Assembly (NCBI GenBank): GCA_005191425.1
Contig: SUPR01000001.1
Span: 5,762-69,761, forward strand
DNA: 64,000 bases
Direction: 5' to 3'
From: Candidatus Helarchaeota ASGARD archaeon Hel_GB_B
Lineage (GTDB): Archaea > Asgardarchaeota > Lokiarchaeia > Helarchaeales > HEL-GB-B
Shown here: one piece after another, positions 7,899-56,472 of the stretch
Numbering within the stretch: the stretch's first letter is position 1
Layout of the letters: each line of letters opens with the position of its first letter
Program-made: the position numbers and the translations under genes
The notes under the pieces: generated by a model
The model's database searches: none
Seen by the model: only the letters and a program-made list of their open reading frames with translations
Told to the model about the DNA's origin: nothing

Positions 7899-9101
7899 TC
7901 AATATAAATAAAGGTTTTCTACAATATTAATTGTTTTATCAAATAATTTTTCTCTTGAATCTCCCAAAATCTGAATAGTTAATATTGGGTCACCCTTTTT
8001 TATTATTGTCCCTAATGATGGAATATCAAAAAATATTGGCTTTTTAAAACTTTTATTAACTTTAAAGTCATTTTTTGCATATGGTATAATCTTAATTCCA
8101 TATTTATTTTTTGGGAATTGTGGGCGAATTATTTTCCCTTTACAAGAATCTATATGCAGTTTAACCATATTAAAACCAGATAATAACTCTAATAATTCCA
8201 TTGTACCTGGGAACCGCGGATTTACCTCCATAAAATAAATATTACCGCCATAAATTTTAAGATCAACTCCATTTATTCCACGTAATTTTAAAAATTTTAG
8301 CAAATCCTTGGTTGATTTTATTATTTTGTTTTTTATTTTATTATCTAAATCAATTGGTATAATATTTCCACAATATGCAAAAGGAGTAGGTGCATTACAT
8401 TGTTTTAATCCAATTAATTGCTCATTTATTGAAATTATATGCACTTCTTCTTCATTATTTAAGGAAGTTATACTAATATCCTTGCCAGGGATATATTCTT
8501 GTACCACCATGTCCGCCTTTTTCTCATCTCCTAATAAAAATTTCCAAGATGCATTAATATTTTCTTCACTATTTATTCTTAAAATTCCGCGTCCGCCTCC
8601 ACTAGCCCATGAAGCACGCAACACAAGTGGATACCCATTTTCTTTACCAAAATCAATAATCTGACTTGGTTTATAAACAATTTTAGATTTTGGGACTTTT
8701 AGACCAAATTGCCCGACTTTTTTATTTAAATTGATACGATCTCTTGCTCTTTTTATTTTTATCGGTTCATTACCTTCAACCCAGACCAATTTTGAAATAT
8801 TTTGCCAAATATCATATCGATCGTCTAATCCACTACCAATTAATGCCGTATTGATTTCTGGATGCTTTTCTATCATTTTCTTGGTTAAATAAAACAAAAT
8901 ATCACTAAATTGTACATTTTTACCCAAGATATTTTCTTTTTTATCTTCAAAATCACGTACTACTAAGATATCATTTGCTATTTTCCGGAGATCTTGGTCT
9001 CCCCAGTAATCTATTACATTTACTTTTAGCCCCAATGCCTTGGCAGATGCCGCAATCGGTCTTGAATTCACACCTATTACTAAAATTGATTCACTATTCA
9101 A
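7899..9101 (-). CDS. ATP-grasp domain protein (uncharacterised archaeal carboligase-like, COG2232-like)
   Basis: Pre-ATP-grasp N-terminal domain ILVIGVNSRPIAASAKALG. ATP-grasp core PLVLRASWASGGGRGI...MVVQEYIPG...YFMEVNPRFPGT. Confidence 0.65.
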   Translation of the reverse strand: MNSESILVIGVNSRPIAASAKALGLKVNVIDYWGDQDLRKIANDILVVRDFEDKKENILGKNVQFSDILFYLTKKMIEKHPEINTALIGSGLDDRYDIWQNISKLVWVEGNEPIKIKRARDRINLNKKVGQFGLKVPKSKIVYKPSQIIDFGKENGYPLVLRASWASGGGRGILRINSEENINASWKFLLGDEKKADMVVQEYIPGKDISITSLNNEEEVHIISINEQLIGLKQCNAPTPFAYCGNIIPIDLDNKIKNKIIKSTKDLLKFLKLRGINGVDLKIYGGNIYFMEVNPRFPGTMELLELLSGFNMVKLHIDSCKGKIIRPQFPKNKYGIKIIPYAKNDFKVNKSFKKPIFFDIPSLGTIIKKGDPILTIQILGDSREKLFDKTINIVENLYLY

Positions 9102-41163: not shown

Positions 41164-41697
41164 ATGAGCGAAGAAATTTATAAATTTTTTGAGGAACTTG
41201 TCAGAGACTATAAAATTCTATTAGAATTAGTTCCAGTTAATAATAACGCTATAAATATAATTACCCAATATTTCCCGCTTAATTTCGAGGCTAATTTTAT
41301 AATATCTGACACTGGAGAAGAATTTTTTATTAGAATCTCCCCAGAATCCAATGTAATAAAGAAAAGAAGAAATCCATTTTCTATCATGACTATTATTACG
41401 GATAAAAATACCTTATTAAAGATAATTAGAAGACAAACTTCAATATTACGCGAATTTAATTTTCAAAATTTACATATATCTAATTTAAAACAAGTTTATA
41501 TGTATCGAATTATTTTATTAGGGATGTTAATACAATCTAAAGCAGAATATGATAATAGAAGAAAAATTCTGCGGTTCTTACCAATTAAAATTATCAGAAA
41601 TTTCTTGTTGATATTTTTAGAAGATAAATCATTTGTTCTTATTAAATTGATTTTAAAAAAATTAATTCCAAAAATTATGGGTATTCTAGTTAAATAA
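41164..41697 (+). CDS. Hypothetical protein
   Basis: ORF only; weak resemblance to SCP2-like alpha/beta. Confidence 0.3.
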   Translation: MSEEIYKFFEELVRDYKILLELVPVNNNAINIITQYFPLNFEANFIISDTGEEFFIRISPESNVIKKRRNPFSIMTIITDKNTLLKIIRRQTSILREFNFQNLHISNLKQVYMYRIILLGMLIQSKAEYDNRRKILRFLPIKIIRNFLLIFLEDKSFVLIKLILKKLIPKIMGILVK

Positions 41698-41716
41698 AAT
41701 AAGATGATTAATAAAA

Positions 41717-42109
41717 ATGAGTGAATTATTTAACAAAATAGAATTTTTCTGTCAAGCATACAAAAAGAATTCTAAAAAATTACTTAATTTTAAAATAGGG
41801 AGTATTTCTAACTATTATCCCCAGGGAATTAAAGTTAATATTATAGTATTAGACAATAAAATTGAAAATTATACCCTGTTAATATCAGATACTTCTTGTA
41901 AAGTTGTAAAAGGATTTTCTTCATCCCAATTAAATTTATCAGCCCTACCAGATGTGTGGGACAAGATTTTTTCAGGTAAATACCGGGTAATTAAAGGAAT
42001 TATGGAGGGTAAAATAAAAGTAAGGGGGATAAGGTCAATGGTCAGTCCGTTGATAATATTATCATCATTATTTTATTTATATTCGGAGGATTTTGATAAT
42101 AATGACTAA
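41717..42109 (+). CDS. SCP2-like (sterol-carrier-protein-2 fold) small protein
   Basis: C-terminal SALPDVWDKIFSGKYRVIKGIMEGKIKVRGIRSMVSPL resembles the SCP2 motif (GKLNP..AFM.GKLKI.GD). Confidence 0.35.
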   Translation: MSELFNKIEFFCQAYKKNSKKLLNFKIGSISNYYPQGIKVNIIVLDNKIENYTLLISDTSCKVVKGFSSSQLNLSALPDVWDKIFSGKYRVIKGIMEGKIKVRGIRSMVSPLIILSSLFYLYSEDFDNND

Positions 42110-43568
42110 AAATACAGTTGCTGAAGATATTGCAGAATTTGTAGTAAATTTGAAATATAAAGATATCCCCAACCGTATTATCAAAAAGGCAAAAGATCAA
42201 ATATTAGGAGTAATTGCTGCAATTTATGCGGGCTCACTTACAGATGAAGGAAAAATAATAATTAATACAGTTAAACAATTTGGTGATAAAGAGGAATCAA
42301 GTTTAATACCTTCGGGATTTAAAACTTCAGTAAGAAGTAGTGTATTATGTAATTCGAGCGTAGGAGTTGCTCTTGACTATGTAGATTATCTATTAAGTGG
42401 GCATACGGGAGTCTCGGCAGTTCCGGTCTCTCTTGCAGTCGGAGAATCATTGAATTCTACAGGAAAAGAAGTTATAACAGCTCAGATCATTGCAAATGAA
42501 ATAGAAGGAAGATTAGGAACAAGCGTATTTCTAGGGCCACAAAATGGACAATTATGGTCGTATATTCATTTAATTGGTGGAGCAGTAGCTGCTTCACGAT
42601 TATTAGGTCTTAATGAAGATCAAGTAGCTAACGCAATTGGAATTGCACTCGCCCAAAGCACATATACAATTTTTAGAGGTTATTTTGCAATGGCAAAACT
42701 TTTTGTAAGCGGACTCCCTGCCCAAATTGGAGTTCAAGCTGCTTATTTTGCAAAAAATGGCTTAAGAGGGGCTCATGATATCATTGAGCACCCATTGGGG
42801 TTCTGTAATTTAATGGCAGATATACCATTAAAATTTATTACTAATTCCGCATTGGGTAAAGCTTGGGTTACAGATACTCTCTGTTATAAAATTTATCCAG
42901 GTTGCGCTTATGTCGATGCTATTGCAGATTGTATTCTTGATTTACATAAAGAATTTGATATTAATTACAAGGAAATTAAGAGAGTTGAAGTATTCTCAAG
43001 TATTTTAACCACGGCGATGGACGATTTTGCAGCACCATTTACTACGATAGATTCGCTAAAAAAAGAACAGACTCATGTAGCGCTAAATTTTACAGTACCT
43101 TATACAGTGGCAGCAACTCTTATAGATAAAGAATTGACACCACGACAATTTAAAAAAGAAAGATATTTGAACCCAGAAATACATAATCTTGCTAATAAAG
43201 TAAAAATAATACCAGATTCTAAAATTTCATCAGAAATCCTGGGTACTTTGCCAGCTATTAAAATTCCAAGCTTAAAAGAGATTATATCTGGAAAATATTC
43301 GTTAGCAGATATAAATTTAGATGATGTAACAGTTGCTTTTGCCGGCGCAGTAAAGATAATAATGAATAACGGAAAAAAATACTATAAAAAACAAAATATT
43401 CCTTATGGAGCTCCAGGAAATCCTTATGATTTAAAGAAAAAATTTACACAAGAAGCTATAAATATATTACCAAGCGAAAAAATAGACCCAGCAATTCGCG
43501 CTATAAATAATATTGAAGCCATCGAAAATATTGGTGATTTAATACAAAAAATTTGTTCTCAAATATAA
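42093..43568 (+). CDS. MmgE/PrpD-family protein (2-methylcitrate dehydratase-like)
   Basis: Size 491 aa with an all-helical N-terminal half. ALDYVDYLLSGHTGVSAVPVSLAVGE resembles the PrpD HDFDDT...HPS block. Confidence 0.5.
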   Translation: MIIMTKNTVAEDIAEFVVNLKYKDIPNRIIKKAKDQILGVIAAIYAGSLTDEGKIIINTVKQFGDKEESSLIPSGFKTSVRSSVLCNSSVGVALDYVDYLLSGHTGVSAVPVSLAVGESLNSTGKEVITAQIIANEIEGRLGTSVFLGPQNGQLWSYIHLIGGAVAASRLLGLNEDQVANAIGIALAQSTYTIFRGYFAMAKLFVSGLPAQIGVQAAYFAKNGLRGAHDIIEHPLGFCNLMADIPLKFITNSALGKAWVTDTLCYKIYPGCAYVDAIADCILDLHKEFDINYKEIKRVEVFSSILTTAMDDFAAPFTTIDSLKKEQTHVALNFTVPYTVAATLIDKELTPRQFKKERYLNPEIHNLANKVKIIPDSKISSEILGTLPAIKIPSLKEIISGKYSLADINLDDVTVAFAGAVKIIMNNGKKYYKKQNIPYGAPGNPYDLKKKFTQEAINILPSEKIDPAIRAINNIEAIENIGDLIQKICSQI

Positions 43569-44269: not shown

Positions 44270-44758
44270 ATGAGTATAAATAATAAAATAAAATATGACT
44301 TTAAGAATAAATCACTAGCTGATATCCTGCTTGACGAGCTAAAGTATCTAAGGTCAAGGACAGGTATTAGAGTAAGCATCATTTTATCTCAAAGTGGTAA
44401 AATACTGTCAATTCATGAGGATGCAGCATATGTGCCCGACCAATTAAGATATGGAGCAAGAAATCAACATATTGATAAAGAATATTTATCAAAATGGATT
44501 GTTTCTACTTCTAGGACTATAGAATTCGTTTCAGAAAAAATGTTTACCGATGGAATAAAATTTATTATTTTAGAAGGAAATGATAAGAAAGAAGCAATAA
44601 TAATGAATTATAAAGACCCAGATCCAGATATTTCCTTTATTTTAATGGGTTTATTAACAAAAGCTGGATCAATTGGACTTGGATATCAAGAAATAAAAGA
44701 GAGTTCTGAAAGAATAAAAGATATTTTAATAAGCTATAAAAATTATCAGAATTTATAA
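44270..44758 (+). CDS. Roadblock/LC7-domain protein
   Basis: LADILLDELKYLRSRTGIRVSIILSQSGKILSIHED...GIKFIILEGNDKKEAIIMNYKDPDPDISFILMGLLTKAGSIGLG follows the roadblock beta-alpha-beta-beta-alpha-beta pattern. Confidence 0.45.
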   Translation: MSINNKIKYDFKNKSLADILLDELKYLRSRTGIRVSIILSQSGKILSIHEDAAYVPDQLRYGARNQHIDKEYLSKWIVSTSRTIEFVSEKMFTDGIKFIILEGNDKKEAIIMNYKDPDPDISFILMGLLTKAGSIGLGYQEIKESSERIKDILISYKNYQNL

Positions 44759-44938
44759 TATAATTAGGTATTATTAAAGAATAGTGATATTTTTATTAAG
44801 TATATTGAGAAAATAAATATATGAATTAATGACAAGATTTTTATGATGTTTTAATAAAATCTTAAATTTCAATTATAAATCGTTTTAGTATAAAGATTAA
44901 CCAAATCAAATTTCAGAAAGTTCAGGAGTTTAGAAATT

Positions 44939-45331
44939 TTGTCAGAATTTGCTAGATTTATGGAATCTATTTCATCAGAAGCAACTGAAACAAAGATAAA
45001 TGAACTTTCTGATGTCCTTAATAAAGTACTTCAGATAATAACAAAAGCACTTGATGATTTAACTGTAAAGATGGTCGGACTTGAAGAAGAAATATATTTT
45101 TTAGAGCAAAAGATTGAAAATATCCAGAGGAGGTCAAAGAATATTCAAGCATCACTGTCCAGACAAGAGGTAAGCCAGAAGGTAGTGACTAATAAAGAAA
45201 CTAAACCACCAACTACCCAAACACAGATTAATCAACCTCAAAAACAAACCACAGAAAATGTAAAACCTGTACCCCTTAGATCTGCAGTAAATACTGAACT
45301 TAAAGATCTATTTAAAAAATTGAAAAAATAA
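44939..45331 (+). CDS. Small coiled-coil protein, paralog 1 of a tandem pair, with a conserved C-terminal amphipathic motif
   Basis: N-terminal coiled coil, Pro/Thr/Gln-rich linker, C-terminal VNTELKDLFKKLKK. Its stop is immediately followed by the start of paralog 2. Confidence 0.5.
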   Translation: MSEFARFMESISSEATETKINELSDVLNKVLQIITKALDDLTVKMVGLEEEIYFLEQKIENIQRRSKNIQASLSRQEVSQKVVTNKETKPPTTQTQINQPQKQTTENVKPVPLRSAVNTELKDLFKKLKK

Positions 45332-45774
45332 TGATGTTCAAAATGAGTGATAATTTTTTTAATATTTTAATGAAATCATCTACGGCTTCAATTGATGAAA
45401 AAATAAAGAAACTAAGCATGGTATTAGACAAAATTATGGAAGTTGCAATCAAGTCAATAAGTGGAATTGAAAATCAAGTTCAAACTTTTGACGCAATATT
45501 AGCAGAAATTAGAAATAAAATTGAAGGACTAGAAGCTAATTTGACCGTTTTGGAACAGAAACAAGAAGCAATGGCAAAATCAAGTATTGGTAGCAGTACA
45601 ACATTAGAAACGCCAATGCCCTCCCAATCTTCTCGTCCAGTTGAAACAAAACCTATAAATAAACCATTGGCACCTCCTGTATCAGCATCAACTCCAAAAC
45701 CAACTCGGCCAATTAACCCCAGAGCTGAATTACAATCAGAATTAAAAGCACTTTTTTCAAAAATGAAGCGTTAA
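45331..45774 (+). CDS. Small coiled-coil protein, paralog 2 of the tandem pair
   Basis: Same architecture as paralog 1; C-terminal RAELQSELKALFSKMKR aligns with ...TELKDLFKKLKK. Confidence 0.5.
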   Translation: MMFKMSDNFFNILMKSSTASIDEKIKKLSMVLDKIMEVAIKSISGIENQVQTFDAILAEIRNKIEGLEANLTVLEQKQEAMAKSSIGSSTTLETPMPSQSSRPVETKPINKPLAPPVSASTPKPTRPINPRAELQSELKALFSKMKR

Positions 45775-45785
45775 AAAAAGAAGTT

Positions 45786-46697
45786 TTATTTATTAAAAAA
45801 ATTTAATATTTCAGTTGCACCACTTTTTAATGCAAGCCCTGCTAATTGAGTAGAGGAATTAGGGCCAATTTGAGTTATTATTAAAAATCCGCTTTTTTTG
45901 TTAGGAATTTTTACTGGCATTAAAATTAATTTGCCTCGTTCACCATCAATTGTTGAGAAGGTCTTACCAATATTAAAAGCATCGCCCACAGAATTTGCAG
46001 ACAATGCCACTGTTGATGCAATTAATGAACCAATATTGACATCAATTTCATGTGGAAAAGTCGAGAATAAAACACGCCCCTCAGTGGTAGAAATTAATGC
46101 AGCTATTGCTCCAGCTTTTGTTTTTATAGTTTCCATGATTTTATTTAGAGCTTTCATTGTTTCTTCATCATATAAAGGGACATTTTCTTTAGGTCCAATT
46201 AAAAATTTGCACATTTTATCTCCTTTGGCAATACATTCAGTTTCATTTATCTCAACTTCAGAATCGAATAATACACTAGCCATACCTTTTAATATTCCTT
46301 GAATACCAAAACATGATGCTATTCCTTCTTCGTAAGCTTCAGGGGAGTTTTGAATCTCAATATATATTTTTTTATTATCTTCATCTATATTTATATTCCC
46401 CAATGTTGCACCCCAGCCTCCTCGTTCTAAGCTTCTTAAGATAAACCTAAACGCGGTATTTTTATCTGCTTTTTTCTTATCTATAACAAGTTCCATAAAT
46501 CTTTTACCAATATCTTCTCCAATTTTAATATAAATTGGCCGAAGACCCTCTTTTAAAAATTTATTTGCAGTGAGATACATCTGTCTAAAATGTTCAATAT
46601 GAAGTATAATTATTCTGAAATTGAAGCCTTTAATTTCTCCTTTAAAAATAGAAAAATCTTTGAAAGTAAAATTTTTAGTCTCTTCTAACAAGCCCAT
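45786..46697 (-). CDS. V4R (Bet3/TRAPP-like) domain fused to a C-terminal roadblock/LC7 domain
   Basis: V4R signature SCFGIQGILKG...EVEINETECIAKGDKMCKFLI (C-x-G ... E-x-E-C-x-x-G-D-x-x-C-x-F). C-terminal IAALISTTEGRVLFSTF...GERGKLILMPV...GFLIITQIG roadblock pattern. Confidence 0.7.
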   Translation of the reverse strand: MGLLEETKNFTFKDFSIFKGEIKGFNFRIIILHIEHFRQMYLTANKFLKEGLRPIYIKIGEDIGKRFMELVIDKKKADKNTAFRFILRSLERGGWGATLGNINIDEDNKKIYIEIQNSPEAYEEGIASCFGIQGILKGMASVLFDSEVEINETECIAKGDKMCKFLIGPKENVPLYDEETMKALNKIMETIKTKAGAIAALISTTEGRVLFSTFPHEIDVNIGSLIASTVALSANSVGDAFNIGKTFSTIDGERGKLILMPVKIPNKKSGFLIITQIGPNSSTQLAGLALKSGATEILNFFNK

Positions 46698-46760
46698 ATT
46701 TTACACCTTTTATTATTAAAAAAGATAAATCATTTAAAATAAAAATAGAGTTAGATAGAT

Positions 46761-49700
46761 TTAAACTCTTGTAATTTTGGTAGATGAAGCCATCCAAATG
46801 GGTCCAATTATTTCGTGAATTAACGCTACCAAAGTTTCTTGTTGAGATACTAATGCAGTTAATTGTGTTAGGTCGTATTTTTCAGAATATGGTGCAATTA
46901 ATACTTCTTCACCGTCTCTACCAACTGCAAATAGGTTCATCTCAGGTCTTTGCCTTATTTGTACATTTCCTAATTCTAGCAACTCTCTAACCTGGTCTTT
47001 TGCTTCGTTCAAGATACGAGATGCAACAATTATTCTTATTCTTCGACTAGCGGATTTAATAGTTTCTAGAGGCAGGTCACTAAAATCAGGAGCTACAATA
47101 GATACAGTTGATTTTGTTCTCATAAGAATGTCCCGGATATATTCTTTTATTGCCTCAACACCTACTAATGGCCAAGTAAGTTCGCCGGATTTCGCTAGTA
47201 TATTAGTAGTTTCCTGCCATACTGCTCTTAGAAGTTGACTTACTTTTAAGGTTTCACCTTCAGCTTCTCTGAATGTAAATGCCGCATCTTTATTAGTGTT
47301 TGTAAGTCGCTCTGTTAATATAGAATCGGTTTCATCTAATTTTGCAGCTAATTTTTCATTTAATGAATTTGCGTTTGATTCATAGTCAGTTTGGTGTTGG
47401 CTAGCTAATTGTAGTAAATCAGTTTCTAGTTTTGCAGCATCTGCTTGGAATCCTGCGGCATGGTTGGAAATTGTTTCTTTACATTCCTCATAAGTTTTGG
47501 TAGTCAATTCTTTAATTTGTGCTAAATATTTATTATCAATTTCGTTTATATCGTTTTTTATTTGTGAAAATCCTTCATTCATAGTATTAGATATTTGCTC
47601 TTGGACATCATTTGCCATTTTATTAACTCGTTCGTTATCATTGTTGACAAAATCTTTAATAGTATTTTTCATTTGATTTAATGCTTCGTGGCCACGGTTT
47701 TTAACATCATCTACTCGTTTAATTTCGGTCTGTACTATATTTGCGACATCATCTTTTTTCTCGTCTATCGATTTATTCATATTAGCTGTTATTTCATCTA
47801 ATTCTCCTAACTTATTATCATCAATTTCTTGAAGATTTTTCTTATGCTCCTGGATTATATTTGCAAGCAATGAAATAGATTTATTACGAATTTCATGTGA
47901 TTGTGATTCAACATTACCTACTCTTAAGTCTAATGCTTTATAAAATTCATCACGCATTGAATCAAGTTCGTTTTGATATTCTTTGATTCTATCATCTAGA
48001 GTATCAGAAAGAACTTGCTCCAATTTACTTGTATCTTCTTGTAAAAGTTTATTTTGGCCGGAAATCTTGGATAAAAATTCGTCTTTCAATTTATTTAGTA
48101 AGTCGCTGTATCTTTTTATGACATCATCTGATTTACTAACTATCGAGTCCTTCATTTTGTAAAAATCTAATTCTATTGCTTCTACTTGAGAATTAATTAT
48201 TTCTTGAGACTGGTCACCATATTTAGAAGCATTATCCTTGAACCAATTTAAGTTATTATTATTATATTTGTCAAAAACAGCAGATACATTTTCCTTTTTA
48301 GTATTTATCGATGAAATTTCGGAACTGATAATATCAGCAAGATTTTCAGTAGTATCGTTTGACCATTTGTCTAAAGATTCATTTACCTTATCTTGATAGT
48401 CTTTAATATTTACTTCTAACTCTTTAACTAAATTTTTTGATGTTTCATTTATGGTATTAATTAATTGTTCATTAGCCCCGCGTTCTTCCTTAATTTTTTC
48501 ATTTAATTTTCTAATAGCATTATCAATAATTTCCTTAATTTCAGGTCTGTCTTTACTATATTCTTTTAATTCATTTTCCAGTTCTTTTTCCCAGTCACGG
48601 AGATTATGAATTGTTTTTGTTATTTCCCCTGATGAAACATTTTTAATTGAGTCGACCTTGGTCTGAATTTCGTCATGTAAAGTTTTCGATAAAGATTTTA
48701 TCTTATTTTTTTCTTCAGATTTCAGATTTTTAATTGAATTATTTGCTTTTGATTTTAAATCATCCAAATTTTTGTTTAAATTAGAAATACTTGCATCTAA
48801 TTCTTGATTGAATTCACTCCTTGCGGAATTTATTTCATCTGTTAATTGAGCTAAACGCTCGTCTAAATTCGAAGTTAATGTTTTTTCCAAATCAGTTGAC
48901 CCGGCTTGAAGCCTTTTAATTTGACTTGTAAATTTGTCAAGAAATTCCTGTTGTATATCACCAACTAATTGCTTGAACCTTGAAATTAAATCATTTGTAA
49001 AATTTGCTACATCATTTGTAAATTGATAGAATTCGGTATCTCGTTTAGTAATTTCATTATTAAACAATTTTTCAGCAGTTTCACGAAAATTGCTGGCTCT
49101 ATTTTTAAACCATTCCATATGATTATTTTGTGAATTTTGAATTTCAGACCTTAATTCCTTATCTTTTTCCCAAGTAGCTTCAATTTCCTTTTTTATCATT
49201 TCTAAGAATTCGTCTGATAAATTTTTATGCCATTCATCATAGGCAGTGTAATTTTGATTGCGATTACTATTAATAATATCATTTACTCCTTTGACATATT
49301 CGACCATTATTCGATCAGTGAATTCATCAAATACGCCATCAATGCGAGTATTAAGTAGATTTAATCCTTCTACATTTTCGGCAGAGACTTTATCGAGAAT
49401 TTCATTGCCGTAATTGTCCAAGACATTATCAATATTATTATTTAAATTATTTAATTCATTTTTATGTTCATCGGCTGTAGTATCATGTATATTTTTAGTT
49501 TTTTGCATTAATTCATTATATCTATTTTCCAGGTCATTAGCCAAAGTGTCTTCATATTCATGAATTAATTTATTGTGGTCATCATTACGCTGATTAAAAT
49601 TGTTAGTTATCTCTTCTTTTCTCGATTCCACATCAGAATTTAATTTTATTACTTGATTTGTAATTAAATTAGAAATTCCATCTCTAGCATTAATTGTATC

Positions 49701-50132
49701 TTTGGCAAATTGTTCTAATTGAGTATTTATAGCCTCTGCTACTTGATCTTTAAGAGTTATGACCTCTTGCTTTAAGTCATTAATATGTTTATTAATGTTA
49801 GAATCGAAATCCTCTCGTTGTTTGATAGTTTTTTCTCTATATTGATCCAAAAATTGAGTAAAGGCAGAATAAGGGACGACTGGCATATATCTATTTATAT
49901 CTTTAGCTGCTGAACCTATTGCAACAGCAAGGTTATTATCTAAAAATTTTTGTATTGTATTTCTCGCTTCTTCCATTGAGATATTTGCCAATGCCGCTAA
50001 AGATGATTCAGTTATATATCCTTTTGCATATAATGCGACAAAGGCTCTTGCTTCAGCTTCTGTTAATGTAACACCTCGTTCTTTAAAAGTATCTATAATT
50101 ATTTGAAACATATTTTGGTTTTGTACACTCAT
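46761..50132 (-). CDS. Giant (1123 aa) coiled-coil protein with an N-terminal TrmB-like winged HTH and a ~170-aa globular C-terminal domain
   Basis: N-terminus FQIIIDTFKERGVTLTEAEARAFVALYAKGYITESSLAALANISMEEARNTIQKFL is a TrmB-type wHTH. About 850 aa of E/K/N/D-rich heptad-like sequence with no Walker motifs. The C-terminal domain is non-repetitive. Confidence 0.7.
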   Translation of the reverse strand: MSVQNQNMFQIIIDTFKERGVTLTEAEARAFVALYAKGYITESSLAALANISMEEARNTIQKFLDNNLAVAIGSAAKDINRYMPVVPYSAFTQFLDQYREKTIKQREDFDSNINKHINDLKQEVITLKDQVAEAINTQLEQFAKDTINARDGISNLITNQVIKLNSDVESRKEEITNNFNQRNDDHNKLIHEYEDTLANDLENRYNELMQKTKNIHDTTADEHKNELNNLNNNIDNVLDNYGNEILDKVSAENVEGLNLLNTRIDGVFDEFTDRIMVEYVKGVNDIINSNRNQNYTAYDEWHKNLSDEFLEMIKKEIEATWEKDKELRSEIQNSQNNHMEWFKNRASNFRETAEKLFNNEITKRDTEFYQFTNDVANFTNDLISRFKQLVGDIQQEFLDKFTSQIKRLQAGSTDLEKTLTSNLDERLAQLTDEINSARSEFNQELDASISNLNKNLDDLKSKANNSIKNLKSEEKNKIKSLSKTLHDEIQTKVDSIKNVSSGEITKTIHNLRDWEKELENELKEYSKDRPEIKEIIDNAIRKLNEKIKEERGANEQLINTINETSKNLVKELEVNIKDYQDKVNESLDKWSNDTTENLADIISSEISSINTKKENVSAVFDKYNNNNLNWFKDNASKYGDQSQEIINSQVEAIELDFYKMKDSIVSKSDDVIKRYSDLLNKLKDEFLSKISGQNKLLQEDTSKLEQVLSDTLDDRIKEYQNELDSMRDEFYKALDLRVGNVESQSHEIRNKSISLLANIIQEHKKNLQEIDDNKLGELDEITANMNKSIDEKKDDVANIVQTEIKRVDDVKNRGHEALNQMKNTIKDFVNNDNERVNKMANDVQEQISNTMNEGFSQIKNDINEIDNKYLAQIKELTTKTYEECKETISNHAAGFQADAAKLETDLLQLASQHQTDYESNANSLNEKLAAKLDETDSILTERLTNTNKDAAFTFREAEGETLKVSQLLRAVWQETTNILAKSGELTWPLVGVEAIKEYIRDILMRTKSTVSIVAPDFSDLPLETIKSASRRIRIIVASRILNEAKDQVRELLELGNVQIRQRPEMNLFAVGRDGEEVLIAPYSEKYDLTQLTALVSQQETLVALIHEIIGPIWMASSTKITRV

Positions 50133-50146
50133 TTTATATTTCCTCC

Positions 50147-52030
50147 TTATGAACTACCTCCTTCTATGGCTACTTTTGTTCTATTTAACTTTTCTACAAA
50201 ATCAGCCAACCCTAAATTTTGGAATTTTTGAATGGAATCCTCCAAAATGTCCTTGGCTTTATCTACTTGCCCTTGAATTGCATATACATTTGATAAGTTA
50301 GTATAAAATTGCCATGCATAAAAATATTCATTATTTGAAAAGAATGTCTTTGCTGCTTTTGTTAGTACATTTATTACTTCATTTGTGGCATTTATTTCTT
50401 CGAAATACTTTTTAGCTTGAGTATAGTTTGCTCTGGCTAATGGATATGCCTTGTCCTTAATGCAATCTTCGGCTTTTTCGACAAATAAATTAGCCAATTT
50501 ATTTATTAATTCTTTCACTTTTTCGGGTTCTCCTAAGCTTCTATTTACATCAATTGCATTAATGAGGACATCCCTGCCATAATCTAATAACCCTTTTTCG
50601 AGGAACTTTTCTGTAAAACTTTCCAAAATATTTGCGGCTTTTTCTTTTTCATTAACTTTTACGAGACTATCCCCTGCAAGTAATATAAACTTAAAAACTT
50701 CATTATAATATCCATAATTATAATAATTCATAGCTATATCATAATAACCATTTGCGATATGCTCAACTGCAGATACCAGTCCCGCTGTTAGAGAATCAGA
50801 TCTTAGACGTTCTAATTCTTCGAATTGAAAATCTTCCAATAATCTTCCATTTTCAGCCAAATTCATTGCAACTTTAATTAGACCTCTTGCTTGCGCATCT
50901 ACTGCAATATCACCCAAACTACTTCGTAAATAAATCCAAAAACTGTCTAATGTAATATAATAAACACTATCTTCTTTACTCAAATATTTTCCAATCATTT
51001 TTTCAAGTATTGGTTTGATATCTTCACTTTTTGCGCCAATCGAACGAGCTATTATATCAATATCTGCAAAATTTGCATTTTCCATTGCAAATGACTGTAA
51101 TATTTTTCTTTCGTCCTCAGTTAATTCTTTAAGTTCTCGTCCAAAACCTTCTTTAACTCCGCCTTCAGCTTTAAACCATACATCTTTACCTAGTTCTCTT
51201 GTATCGCCTCTATTTTCATACAACCATCCGCCATTATAAACTAAATAAAGAGGAATTCCACCACTATGTCTTAATAAATTCTCTTTTATCTCTTCACTAA
51301 ATTTAATTCCTGCTGCATCTGCTCTTTTATCAAGTAATTCTATTGCATCAGCATTATTTAAAGTTGGTAAACCTATTTCGTGAAAATCCTCTAATACATA
51401 ACGAACTTTTGGATAATACTTTTCCCAAACAGACATCAAAAAGAGAACAGGGAGGTTTGGATTTTTTACATCCGTTTTTATAGCGTCTACTATTGCTTTT
51501 AATACATCAAATGCATTGTCATGATTTAATATTATAAATCTTTCAACAAGATTAGAAACAATTAGAATACCTTTTTTATTGAATTTATTACCTTGAATAT
51601 TTTTAATAATTTTAGGTAATTTTTTAACAATTTTTTTCAAAAAAGAATCAATATACTTACTCATATCAGGGATTTCATAGCTGCTTTTTAAAAGCGGAGC
51701 TTTTTTACCTGGTTTTGTAATAGGTTTCTTTTTGTCCACGGGTTTCGTTATTTCATCTAATTCATTGCTTATTACATCGAAATAACCTTCAATATTTATC
51801 AATGGTACATCATATCTAATTACCAGAAAACCATTTGATGAAGCTATGGACTCGATTTGTTTTAAAAAACTTCTTCTACCAATTCCTTCGCGTCCATGTA
51901 ATATTAAGCCATGTGAAATATTTTCTCGGTCAGCTATTTTTTGCAAAATTCCTGAAAATTGATCTATTTCTCTTTTTCTTCCCACAAAGAATTTCGCTGG
52001 GCATGTTTCTAATTTAAATGGGTCCGTCAT
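50147..52030 (-). CDS. Arch-ATPase-like (PF01637-type) P-loop protein with a C-terminal TPR-like helical repeat region; the Walker A is degenerate
   Basis: FVGRKREIDQFSGIL...LILHGREGIGRRSFLKQIE aligns with the Arch_ATPase block FvGRe.El..L...vyGpRRvGKTsLl, but the Walker A Lys-Thr is replaced (GIGRRS). The C-terminal ~250 aa has TPR/helical repeats (YYNYGYYNEVF..., AWQFYTNLSNVYAIQGQVDKA). Confidence 0.6.
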   Translation of the reverse strand: MTDPFKLETCPAKFFVGRKREIDQFSGILQKIADRENISHGLILHGREGIGRRSFLKQIESIASSNGFLVIRYDVPLINIEGYFDVISNELDEITKPVDKKKPITKPGKKAPLLKSSYEIPDMSKYIDSFLKKIVKKLPKIIKNIQGNKFNKKGILIVSNLVERFIILNHDNAFDVLKAIVDAIKTDVKNPNLPVLFLMSVWEKYYPKVRYVLEDFHEIGLPTLNNADAIELLDKRADAAGIKFSEEIKENLLRHSGGIPLYLVYNGGWLYENRGDTRELGKDVWFKAEGGVKEGFGRELKELTEDERKILQSFAMENANFADIDIIARSIGAKSEDIKPILEKMIGKYLSKEDSVYYITLDSFWIYLRSSLGDIAVDAQARGLIKVAMNLAENGRLLEDFQFEELERLRSDSLTAGLVSAVEHIANGYYDIAMNYYNYGYYNEVFKFILLAGDSLVKVNEKEKAANILESFTEKFLEKGLLDYGRDVLINAIDVNRSLGEPEKVKELINKLANLFVEKAEDCIKDKAYPLARANYTQAKKYFEEINATNEVINVLTKAAKTFFSNNEYFYAWQFYTNLSNVYAIQGQVDKAKDILEDSIQKFQNLGLADFVEKLNRTKVAIEGGSS

Positions 52031-54971: not shown

Positions 54972-55475
54972 ATGCAAGTCTATATTACAACACTTGGGCG
55001 ATCTGAATGGGCAGTTATCAATAGTTATTATGCAGTTGTTAAAAATAAGAGATATTACCCAGATTTAATTTATATCATAACTGAAGATTTGTTCCAAGAT
55101 AGAATTCACAAGATAATAGATGGTCTAAATATCATTTCAAATGAGTTTGGATTTAATCCAGAATATAAATTGACAATTGTAAAAGAATCCGAGTTTTCTG
55201 ATGCAAAGAATAAAATCGATATAATCGCAAAAGATTTAGAAAATTCTAATAATATGATTGCCGTAGATATTACATCTGGTCGAAAAGTATTAGTAATTAA
55301 TATTCTCTTATTAATATTCTATTCAAAAATAAAAGTTCAACATATTTTTTATTTAGCAATAAAGACAATTAAAGGGGTTAATAAACCATATGAAATGATA
55401 CCAATTCAAATTCAATCATTAAGAGATTTTATCCAAGAAATTAATGAGGTGAAAAATAGACCAAATGGCACATGA
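54972..55475 (+). CDS. CARF-domain protein (cyclic-oligoadenylate sensor-like Rossmann domain), standalone
   Basis: MQVYITTLGRSEWAV (compare the Csm6/Csx1 TLGTS loop) and AVDITSGRKVLVI (compare the CARF D-[IL]-T-[SH]-G-[TF]-[KR] motif). Length 167 aa. Confidence 0.55.
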   Translation: MQVYITTLGRSEWAVINSYYAVVKNKRYYPDLIYIITEDLFQDRIHKIIDGLNIISNEFGFNPEYKLTIVKESEFSDAKNKIDIIAKDLENSNNMIAVDITSGRKVLVINILLLIFYSKIKVQHIFYLAIKTIKGVNKPYEMIPIQIQSLRDFIQEINEVKNRPNGT

Positions 55476-56472
55476 AACAATAATTAATCCCCCAGAATTA
55501 CAAATTTTATTGAACAAATTTGACGACTATTCGATATCATTTCCTGCTTTTTCTAAAGATACAATTTTAACTGCAACACCATTTAATGATTGTTATAAAA
55601 TAAAAGTAAATGATAATTATTTTGATTCCGATCGAGATGGTCTTAACATTTTTAACGATATTTATTATTCAGAAATACCAAATAATCAAGATTTTCTAGA
55701 ATGTCTCTTGTCAAGTAATTGTATTACCTATCCTAACGTGGGAGATTTTGAGTATATAAGAAAATCATATAAAAATATCCATAAAAAGGTATATTTTGCT
55801 GTGGATACAAATATTCTCTATCATAGGTTTATCTCTTTCTCTAAATTAAAAGAAGAGAAAATCGTATTAGCACCTACCATTAAAGATGAAATAGAGTCAT
55901 CAATAAATTATAAATATAATAGGGAGGAAATTAATGAAATTAAAAAAATTGTAAGATATAACAAAAATTTATTTGATGAATTTAGAAATAGACGCATAAA
56001 AAAGTCAAGAAAGGCAGCATATCTTGCATTAAATGAGCTAAAACTTTTAAATATCCTTAATATAGACAGCGTAAAAATAGAGCAAGAAAATTATGAACAA
56101 AATGATTTAAAAATTGTTAGAGAGTTAAAAGCTTTTGAAAATGACTCAGGAGCGTTGGTAGTATTATTAACAGCAGATAGAGCAATGGTAGATTTCTGCA
56201 GAATAGAGTCCTTAGATTATTTTAATTTTGATTATCCAAACACATTTAATATAAATACATGTTCGGCACAACAATTTAGGTCTTTAATTTTTAATTTAGC
56301 CGTTGTTTTTGGATTTATAAAATTAAATTCGACAATAATATTCGGCGAATTTTCAGGAAAACACGAGTTAGACAATTTGAAAATTAGATTTTTAAACAAA
56401 AACTTGTATAATAAATTCGAAAAAGATTTAAGCATCTGCCGGAAGTTAGAAAAACTAAATTTTGATTTTTAA
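55465..56472 (+). CDS. PIN-domain nuclease with a ~110-aa N-terminal domain of unknown function; overlaps the CARF gene by 11 nt
   Basis: VYFAVDTNILYHRF (first Asp), PTIKDEIE (Glu), VVLLTADRAMVDF (third Asp), ESLDYF; the spacing fits the PIN fold. Confidence 0.5.
   Translation: MAHETIINPPELQILLNKFDDYSISFPAFSKDTILTATPFNDCYKIKVNDNYFDSDRDGLNIFNDIYYSEIPNNQDFLECLLSSNCITYPNVGDFEYIRKSYKNIHKKVYFAVDTNILYHRFISFSKLKEEKIVLAPTIKDEIESSINYKYNREEINEIKKIVRYNKNLFDEFRNRRIKKSRKAAYLALNELKLLNILNIDSVKIEQENYEQNDLKIVRELKAFENDSGALVVLLTADRAMVDFCRIESLDYFNFDYPNTFNINTCSAQQFRSLIFNLAVVFGFIKLNSTIIFGEFSGKHELDNLKIRFLNKNLYNKFEKDLSICRKLEKLNFDF

Follow-up and report, generated by a model that had tools for sequence, protein, structure and literature searches.

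Two small coiled-coil genes of an Asgard archaeon, CC1 and CC2, raise the question of what their protein products bind and whether the binding partner is encoded beside them. The genes lie in a 64,000-nucleotide stretch of contig SUPR01000001.1 from the Candidatus Helarchaeota archaeon Hel_GB_B (hereafter the window), which is AT-rich with ~28% GC. They follow gene A, which encodes a 162-residue protein, and precede a gene for a protein with V4R and Roadblock/LC7 domains (V4R-Robl). A preliminary description of the locus proposed that the two proteins are paralogs and that their conserved C-terminal motif is recognised by a common partner, possibly the roadblock or V4R neighbours. The analysis described below indicates that the motif does behave like a recognition element, and gives no support to the neighbours as its partner. 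The best overall explanation, whose probability is judged to fall somewhat short of even, is an oligomeric adaptor that displays several docking helices, with actin as the lead candidate partner. The functional assignment is a lead only.

The three open reading frames (ORFs) on the plus strand, gene A (44270-44758), CC1 (44939-45331) and CC2 (45331-45774), are real and conserved. CC1 encodes 130 residues and begins with a TTG codon preceded by GGAG; this start is supported by the conservation of the N-terminus M[SA]EFARFMESIS in the orthologues P0011-P0016. The CC2 ORF spans 147 codons. As all CC2 orthologues start with MSEDF, the true start is probably the ATG at 45343, which yields a protein of 143 residues and leaves an 11-nt gap after CC1 as seen in the orthologous locus L009. 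The two genes are paralogs as first described, and the abutment at 45331, a TAATG overlap of stop and start codons, is probably not a real start. Paralogy is established by a composition-adjusted BLASTP alignment of CC1 with CC2 that covers their full length with 29% identity (E=1e-9). An identical copy of the CC2 protein is present on 9 metagenome contigs.

CC1 and CC2 belong to a larger group of proteins. The profile hidden Markov model (HMM) of this family scores them at 122.8 and 123.9 bits, respectively. The family comprises ~60 sequence clusters, and all named members derive from metagenome-assembled genomes (MAGs) of Asgard archaea, namely Helarchaeota, Lokiarchaeota, Thorarchaeota, Odinarchaeia, Freyarchaeota and unclassified Promethearchaeota. 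Word-indexed searches retrieved orthologues of CC1 and CC2 only from Helarchaeota, Lokiarchaeota and Promethearchaeota MAGs. Among 1.84 billion cluster representatives, 376 were matched by a profile search at E≤1e-3, and ~45 of these are short proteins (103-195 residues) aligned end to end; the long matches that align in multiple stretches are coiled-coil noise. Neither protein matches a Pfam or NCBIfam family, and no relative was found in the PDB beyond generic coiled coils. The family analyses employed an alignment of 58 members, and the loci included 12 metagenome loci sampled through a subset of that alignment and 4 more found by a genome-contig scan with the N-terminal pattern only. As judged from sequence comparison, CC1 and CC2 are members of an undescribed and unannotated family that is confined to Asgard archaea and extends well beyond this one roadblock/V4R island.

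Some Helarchaeota MAGs carry several paralogs: at least three in ACTSWR, the MAG of the window, where ACTSWR_12140, located away from the pair, is the third; at least three in ACTSRP, with ACTSRP_10920 as the third member; and at least four in ACTSPY, with ACTSPY_03705 as a fourth type. Orthologues of ACTSWR_12140 are found in L038 (8001-8450), L028, L030 and L039, flanked by a gene for 171-179 residues and a MinD/ParA/CbiA-type ATPase (262 residues), and their loci adjoin an 1855-residue ORF and a CCDC39-like coiled-coil gene. The sole multi-domain architecture seen for the family module is P0125 (409 residues, Promethearchaeota MAG, MFX1450826.1), in which the module stands behind N-terminal HEAT repeats and a charged linker. 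The only locus with a bacterial assignment, L018 (DATKTP010000202.1, binned as Candidatus Deferrimicrobium sp.), is a 2.5-kb contig with Asgard synteny that contains an Arf-like GTPase gene, a gene for a 216-residue protein and a tandem pair of family genes; the bacterial assignment is probably a binning error.

The family members share a layout in which a conserved N-terminal helix leads into a heptad coiled coil of ~55-65 residues, followed by a variable, predicted-disordered linker and a basic helix of 17 residues. The duplicated architecture of coiled coil, linker and terminal helix reported for the two paralogs is real. The N-terminal helix has the consensus ..EEK[IV]..LS.[IV]L.K[IV]M.I in the 58-member alignment. 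The AlphaFold2 (AF2) model of CC2, calculated from the 58-sequence alignment, has a mean predicted local distance difference test score (pLDDT) of 81 and contains helices at residues 3-18, 21-86 and 130-146. The long helix (45391-45588, residues 21-86) is predicted with a pLDDT of 89-98 over residues 21-80; it begins with the conserved segment DEKIKKLSMVLDKIMEV, in which K24 and L32 are invariant and I25, S29 and K34 nearly invariant, and continues as the heptad coiled coil. The linker (45589-45717, residues 87-129) lacks secondary structure in the model, with a pLDDT of 57-69, and the terminal helix at 130-146 is confident (pLDDT ~90). Across the 58 members the linker measures ~25-80 residues with a proline content of 0-46%, and neither its sequence nor its length is conserved. 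The linkers of both paralogs had been described as rich in Pro, Thr and Gln; that of CC2 is Pro/Ser/Thr-rich with 22% proline, and that of CC1, for which the description was not confirmed, has ~10% proline.

In the PDB, the profile of the coil region matches trimeric coiled coils almost exclusively (adhesin stalks, reovirus sigma-1, HA2, fibritin and gp26), and the core positions of the coil are rich in isoleucine. Judged by this type of coil, the oligomer may be a trimer rather than a dimer.

The terminal helix occupies 45278-45328 in CC1 (RSAVNTELKDLFKKLKK, residues 114-130), as delineated by the motif alignment and motif HMM, and 45721-45771 in CC2 (RAELQSELKALFSKMKR, residues 131-147), where the AF2 model agrees. 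In the alignment the full motif reads K-P-x-x-P-[VIM]-[SN]-x-R-x-A-[LI]-[QMN]-x-E-L-K-x-L-F-x-K-[RM]-K-K, and its core, R-x-A-[LI]-[QMN]-x-E-L-K-x-L-F-x-K-[RM]-K, is near-invariant. The glutamate and the leucine after it are each present in 57 of the 58 members, the lysine in 55, the second leucine in 50, the phenylalanine in 52 and the arginine at position -6 in 48. The similarity is not mere compositional bias, a concern raised in the preliminary description, as a motif HMM built without the window clade (the leave-clade-out HMM) yields 46.6 bits for CC2 and 32.2 bits for CC1, far above the best of 2000 shuffles of each (9.7 and 13.7 bits). When applied to the 1949 ORFs of all fetched loci, the motif HMM recovered family members only; the noise ceiling was 6.2 bits and the weakest true member scored 15.8 bits. 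Among the short motifs of these small proteins it is one of the most highly conserved. That it stays nearly invariant across Asgard classes while the linker before it varies freely indicates that it behaves like a recognition element.

How the two proteins may act together is suggested by the distribution of the tandem pairs. Such pairs occur in the window clade (the window itself, listed as WIN, and L009, L010 and L043) and in a second clade (L013, L018, L020, L033 and L035), and other clades have single genes at the locus. In the second clade, first genes cluster with one another, as do second genes; which of the two corresponds to CC1 and which to CC2 is weakly supported. The members of a pair are spaced by 1-170 nt, and their long-term retention as differentiated neighbours at this spacing fits co-expression and a hetero-oligomer. 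Presumably, CC1 and CC2 are made together and assemble through their coiled coils into a hetero-oligomer, either a dimer or a trimer. On the resulting stalk, flexible arms would present two or three terminal helices, and a multivalent adaptor of this kind, co-produced from the two genes, is probably what the pair forms. In L013, the last 19 residues of the two tandem paralogs (8101-8472 and 8643-9014) are identical and the last ~40 nucleotides nearly so, and the codons upstream differ at synonymous sites, a pattern that suggests gene conversion confined to the motif-coding end.

The polar as well as the hydrophobic residues of the terminal helix are invariant, from which a docking role is inferred, and the variation of the flanking genes between clades suggests that the docking partner is not a neighbour. 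Clustering of the neighbours in 20 loci revealed no universally conserved gene; the recurrent ones are specific to a clade and several are metabolic. In the second clade, an Arf-like GTPase gene, a gene for a 216-residue zinc-ribbon protein and sometimes a GHKL ATPase gene lie upstream, and a gene for a 382-residue protein and an aminotransferase gene lie downstream. The neighbours are metabolic genes in L026, L031 and L036, a MinD/ParA-type ATPase gene and the 1855-residue ORF in L028, L030 and L038, and genes for a VTT-domain protein, a 410-residue protein and a GTPase in L024. Genes for unknown proteins surround the member in L040, and sugar-metabolism genes surround that in L042. It is fairly probable that the docking target of the terminal helix is a protein with Asgard-wide conservation whose gene lies outside the locus. 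The N-terminal helix, itself conserved, would serve as a second, fixed site of attachment or assembly.

Which protein this might be was approached by scoring 28 known short helical motifs against the family motif HMM, each together with 1000 composition-preserving shuffles. A single motif stood out, the filamentous-actin-binding motif (FAB) of human VASP (residues 259-278, a sequence confirmed in PMC10340426), which scored 9.5 bits with 0 of 1000 shuffles reaching that value. Against the leave-clade-out HMM the FAB scored 12.0 bits, with 0 of 2000 shuffles reaching it and a shuffle maximum of 7.1 bits. The VASP FAB lies above the noise ceiling and below the weakest family member. The Mena FAB peptide scored 11.1 bits; its sequence is unconfirmed in the literature and it was not used as evidence. 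The Ena/VASP FAB and the family share the spacing [LI]-M-x-E-[LM]-[KN]-x-[LM]-[FL]-x-[KR]-[RK]-[KR], and members of the Thorarchaeota type come especially close, for example MMGELKALLAARRKKA in P0150.

The resemblance to Ena/VASP proteins extends to the general design. Directly ahead of the helix, 10 of the 58 members have proline runs of 5-8 residues and 9 of the 58 have the sequence [GASL]PPPP, as in APPPPPGAGAPPPPPPPPGGGAPPPPPG of P0077. Polyproline tracts of this kind recruit profilin-actin in Ena/VASP proteins and formins. The arm beside the helix is proline-rich in Ena/VASP proteins and can be so in the family (with tracts of the GPPPPP type in some members), and the family, like VASP, would oligomerise through a coiled coil. 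In contrast to Ena/VASP proteins, the family lacks an EVH1 domain and a separate G-actin-binding (KLRK) motif; its coil is N-terminal and of the heptad type, whereas that of VASP is a C-terminal right-handed tetramer; and its members measure 120-175 residues in total. No Pfam match to EVH1/WH1 or VASP_tetra was found for the family, which has one conserved motif after the linker. The likeness consists of one short motif and a common design, with no demonstrable homology. By analogy to Ena/VASP, the oligomerising coil, proline-rich arm and basic actin-binding helix would make up the parts list of a filament tether or elongation factor. On the strength of the FAB match and the polyproline tracts, the Asgard actin filament is the lead candidate for the partner, a tentative assignment that is on balance somewhat unlikely. 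The fuller proposal, that the family comprises Asgard-only actin-filament-binding proteins with a FAB-like helix on the proline-rich arms of an oligomeric stalk, is rather unlikely.

Several observations weigh against a role in actin binding. The motif HMM gives E values of ~1-3 at 10-12 bits against 177,635 PDB sequences, so that the FAB score is borderline at the scale of a proteome. The FAB is a simple basic amphipathic helix, and its resemblance to the motif was noticed by eye before it was tested. The CC1 and CC2 proteins of the window contain no polyproline (the longest run is 2), and the linkers of some other members have near-zero proline. According to PMC8410842, polyproline is not bound by the profilins of Loki, Odin and Heimdall LC2; lineages with polyproline-binding profilins are found in Heimdall and Thor (PMC8410842). 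No gene for actin, profilin, gelsolin or Vps4 lies near the family loci examined. Moreover, among the matches of the profile search the motif is seen solely in proteins that also have the N-terminal helix; as it never occurs apart from that helix, an intramolecular or intra-complex role is also possible.

Other actin-binding elements were compared with the motif. A canonical WH2 motif was suggested by the sequence R-x-A-L-x-x-E-L, the basic residues and the upstream polyproline, and was rejected on profile and peptide tests. In likeness to the WH2 motifs of WASP, WAVE, WIP and thymosin beta-4, the family sequence R-x-A-[LI]-[QMN]-x-E-L resembles R-x-x-L-L-x-x-I and is followed 7-9 positions later by basic residues; some members place the helix just after polyproline and a few have short acidic tails. 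In contrast to WH2, the family has K-[RM]-K-K after the helix, has neither LKK[TV] nor a glycine break, and forms one continuous predicted helix (130-146). The WH2 profile PF02205 did not match CC1 or CC2 at E≤1, was not among the recurrent Pfam families of the 58 members at E≤10, and did not match any of 10 C-terminal peptides at E≤10. Against the motif HMM, the scores of twelve WH2 peptides did not exceed those of their shuffles. The same was true of three C-region helices of WASP/WAVE proteins, and the G-actin motif of VASP did not stand out. A search of the PDB with the motif profile alone returned chance matches only, with no WH2 chain and no chain bearing an MIT-interacting motif (MIM). 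In the literature searched, the WH2-like motifs described from Asgard archaea are all embedded in gelsolins, and a stand-alone protein like those of the CC family is not mentioned.

The stalk itself calls to mind the short trimeric coiled-coil proteins HSBP1, BRK1/HSPC300, CCDC53/WASHC3 and the BLOC-1 subunits, which likewise are small, with a single long helix and a core of I, L and V. Recurrent Pfam matches among the 58 members are to CCDC53 (15 members, best E 3.7e-5), BLOC1_2 (13) and HSBP1 (8); they are sub-threshold in the two window proteins, to which the available scores refer (14-16 bits). Membership in CCDC53/WASHC3 (PF10152) was rejected, as CC1 scores 16 bits and CC2 14.1 bits, below the 24.6-bit cut-off, at shifted profile positions; such inconsistent registers on the profile are as expected for generic coiled-coil similarity. 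The HSBP1, BRK1, CCDC53 and BLOC-1 families also lack the conserved terminal helix. The family is a variant of the design in which an oligomeric adaptor ends in a helix, and it lies outside WH2, Ena/VASP, ESCRT-III and every Pfam family.

The terminal helix could instead be a membrane-targeting sequence as in MinD, FtsA and SepF, with the stalk anchoring the cargo of the N-terminal helix to the cytoplasmic membrane. The position of the helix, (nearly) C-terminal and after a flexible linker, its charge of +3 to +4 and its hydrophobic face of L, L, L/F and M/L are consistent with such a role; oligomerisation would provide avidity, and the E. coli MinD peptide scored weakly above shuffles (58 of 1000 reached its score). 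However, the polar residues R(-6), E(0), K(+2) and K(+7) hardly vary, and what lipid-binding helices usually conserve is their amphipathicity, not the sequence itself. With a family mean of 0.27, compared with 0.57 for FtsA, the hydrophobic moment is modest, and the mean hydrophobicity is negative. The MinD peptide of B. subtilis and the FtsA peptide stayed at shuffle level, and none of the three bacterial membrane-targeting helices stood out against the motif HMM. Membrane targeting is therefore unlikely.

The neighbours named in the preliminary description deserve separate consideration, as it suggested that the pair may share one functional island with the genes at 45786-52030 and left the binding of the terminal helix to the gene A or V4R-Robl protein as a possibility. 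Gene A, CC1, CC2 and V4R-Robl are adjacent in the window, L009, L010-12, L037 and L043, and the product of gene A has a predicted Roadblock/MglB fold. In Ragulator and dynein, roadblock dimers hold on to helical segments of the proteins they partner with. Little can be concluded from the adjacency, however. The order gene A, CC1, CC2, V4R-Robl, a gene for a 1123-residue coiled-coil protein and a gene for a 627-residue AAA/TPR protein is found in L001-L012, L037 and L043, and in these loci the whole block of ~20 kb is syntenic, including the VIT1, HAD, ACT, homoserine dehydrogenase and PrpD genes. As the entire block, housekeeping genes included, is syntenic within one Helarchaeota subclade, the adjacency reflects shared ancestry. 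Co-location with roadblock or V4R genes is absent outside the subclade of the window, where at least six other clades have different neighbours and no roadblock gene recurs. The island thus rests on synteny among close relatives and not on conserved linkage.

The orientation of the genes was also misread. V4R-Robl (45786-46697, minus strand, 303 residues; Pfam V4R 1.3e-11 and Robl_LC7 7.8e-6), listed here for context only, had been placed divergent from the pair, with the pair upstream of it. The ORF coordinates show that the two are convergent, tail to tail, with a gap of 11 bp (45775-45785) between the stop codons, and they have no promoter region in common as a result. Conversely, orthologues of gene A in L021 and L022 are followed by enoyl-CoA hydratase genes, not by a CC pair, and the V4R module is absent there as well. 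Lastly, the motif is invariant across Asgard classes, whereas gene A is found in Helarchaeota and close Promethearchaeota MAGs only. Binding of the helix by either neighbour, within such an island, is quite unlikely; a roadblock-fold partner encoded elsewhere in the genome is conceivable.

Gene A was characterized in its own right. Its designation as roadblock/LC7-like holds at the level of the fold, as shown by the AF2 model and Foldseek, and fails for the Pfam family: Robl_LC7 (PF03259) gave no match at E≤1. No NCBIfam family matched, and a profile of 25 homologues found no sequence relative in the PDB. These 25 homologues are 50-85% identical and come from Helarchaeota and Promethearchaeota MAGs; the gene A product of the window is 100% identical to ACTSWR_01005. 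The AF2 model from the alignment of the homologues has a mean pLDDT of 67.8 and a predicted template modelling (TM) score of 0.70, with low confidence at residues 78-106. Foldseek returned 46 PDB matches at E≤1e-3 (best E 5e-6, TM 0.5-0.68), of which the top 40 are all MglB, Asgard or bacterial Roadblock, or LAMTOR (Ragulator/EGO) chains. The predicted alpha-beta-beta-alpha...beta-beta-alpha fold is like those of MglB, Asgard Roadblock3 (9jue), the Thor roadblock (7f8m) and LAMTOR2. In contrast, sequence identity to the structural matches is 11-22%, and gene A adds an insertion at ~55-106 (~40 residues, low confidence) and a long C-terminal helix (135-161). No GTPase gene lies beside gene A in the window, L021 or L022. 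The model points to a separate, divergent protein of the Roadblock/MglB fold, whose adjacency to the pair is confined to this lineage. Two adjacent paralogous small genes (177 residues, and 130 residues weakly SCP2-like) followed by an MmgE/PrpD-family gene are found at 41164-43568 (plus strand) of the window and at 6984-9414 of L022, and its linkage to gene A persists in distant Helarchaeota without a CC pair. The group to which gene A belongs may be these upstream genes, not CC1 and CC2.

A third alternative casts the family as a small-GTPase effector or regulator scaffold, in which, by analogy with coiled-coil GTPase effectors, the N-terminal or terminal helix would bind an Arf- or Rag-like GTPase. 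In the second clade, the pair of L013, L018, L033 and L035 lies 1-3 kb from genes for an Arf-like GTPase and the 216-residue protein, and that of L020 is accompanied by the latter only. GTPase genes also lie within 3 kb in L024 and L042, and in L. ossiferum the proteins that co-precipitate with Lokiactin include an Arf GTPase (bioRxiv 10.1101/2025.11.30.690169). On the other hand, small GTPases are so numerous in Asgard genomes that proximity is expected by chance, no GTPase gene is found near the pair of the window or in the clades of L026, L031, L036, L028, L030 and L038, and Asgard GTPase partners are generally not linked to them in operons (PMC10933270). A GTPase-binding function appears distinctly improbable. 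The protein of ~216 residues itself, encoded in L013 (5603-6241, minus strand), L035 (2357-3007, minus strand), L018, L020 and L033, has an N-terminal half that by eye resembles a GRAM/PH domain and a C-terminal CxxC...CxxC zinc ribbon. Its gene is tail to tail with that of the Arf-like GTPase, just upstream of the tandem pair, in L013, L018, L033 and L035. For the L013 protein no precomputed Pfam match is on record, and no Pfam search was aimed at it.

That an MIT domain, be it of Asgard Vps4 or of a different protein, recognises the terminal helix as an ESCRT-III-type MIM1 is highly improbable: the sequence E-L-K-x-L-F-x-K-[ML]-K-[KR] matches (D/E)xxLxxRLxxL(K/R) superficially, being likewise short, helical and close to the C-terminus, with a 4-3 leucine spacing and a K/R end, the CHMP1B peptide scored 3.6 bits (7 of 1000 shuffles) and two Snf7 genes lie ~9 kb from the L024 member, but the six other MIM1 peptides of the seven were at shuffle level, the family lacks the Snf7 core, ESCRT genes do not recur in its neighbourhood, and many members extend 3-10 residues past the motif.

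A few further features of the region were recorded. The 1123-residue protein encoded beyond V4R-Robl (46761-50132, minus strand) is almost wholly coiled coil, with weak Pfam matches to a TrmB-like winged helix at the N-terminus and a FilR1_middle-like segment at the C-terminus, and, in NCBIfam, sub-threshold matches to the coiled-coil portion of ZorA, an anti-phage protein (4e-7, 29 bits, with a cut-off of 250 bits). Its gene is conserved together with V4R-Robl and the 627-residue AAA_16/TPR gene in the subclade of the window. Beyond the 627-residue gene, L009 (17216-19354) and L010 (17756-19624) contain three extra small Roadblock/LC7 genes, one of them LAMTOR5-like; the window has genes for a 222-residue membrane protein and a metallophosphoesterase at this position instead. 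Downstream of the island, two genes at 54972-56472 (plus strand) carry weak Pfam marks of Csa3_N, a CRISPR-associated regulator, and faint marks of PIN_4 (identical contig L001).

Profilins and gelsolins are treated as essentially the sole actin regulators of Asgard archaea (bioRxiv 10.1101/2025.11.30.690169; PMC9433394). The CC family is a testable candidate for how Lokiactin filaments are nucleated, elongated or tied to membranes, and its merits as such are its small size, its Asgard-wide distribution, the several paralogs in some single Helarchaeota MAGs, the near-invariant 17-residue helix and, in some lineages, polyproline of the eukaryotic style. If the partner is indeed actin, the family would add a third class to the profilins and gelsolins as actin regulators of Asgard archaea. 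It could be an archaeal precursor of the modules in which eukaryotic Ena/VASP and WASP-family proteins combine polyproline with a basic helix, or else a convergent analogue of them. Even with a partner other than actin, the motif defines an unannotated, Asgard-specific interaction module, and the family is a candidate for a missing class of Asgard cytoskeletal or membrane adaptor.

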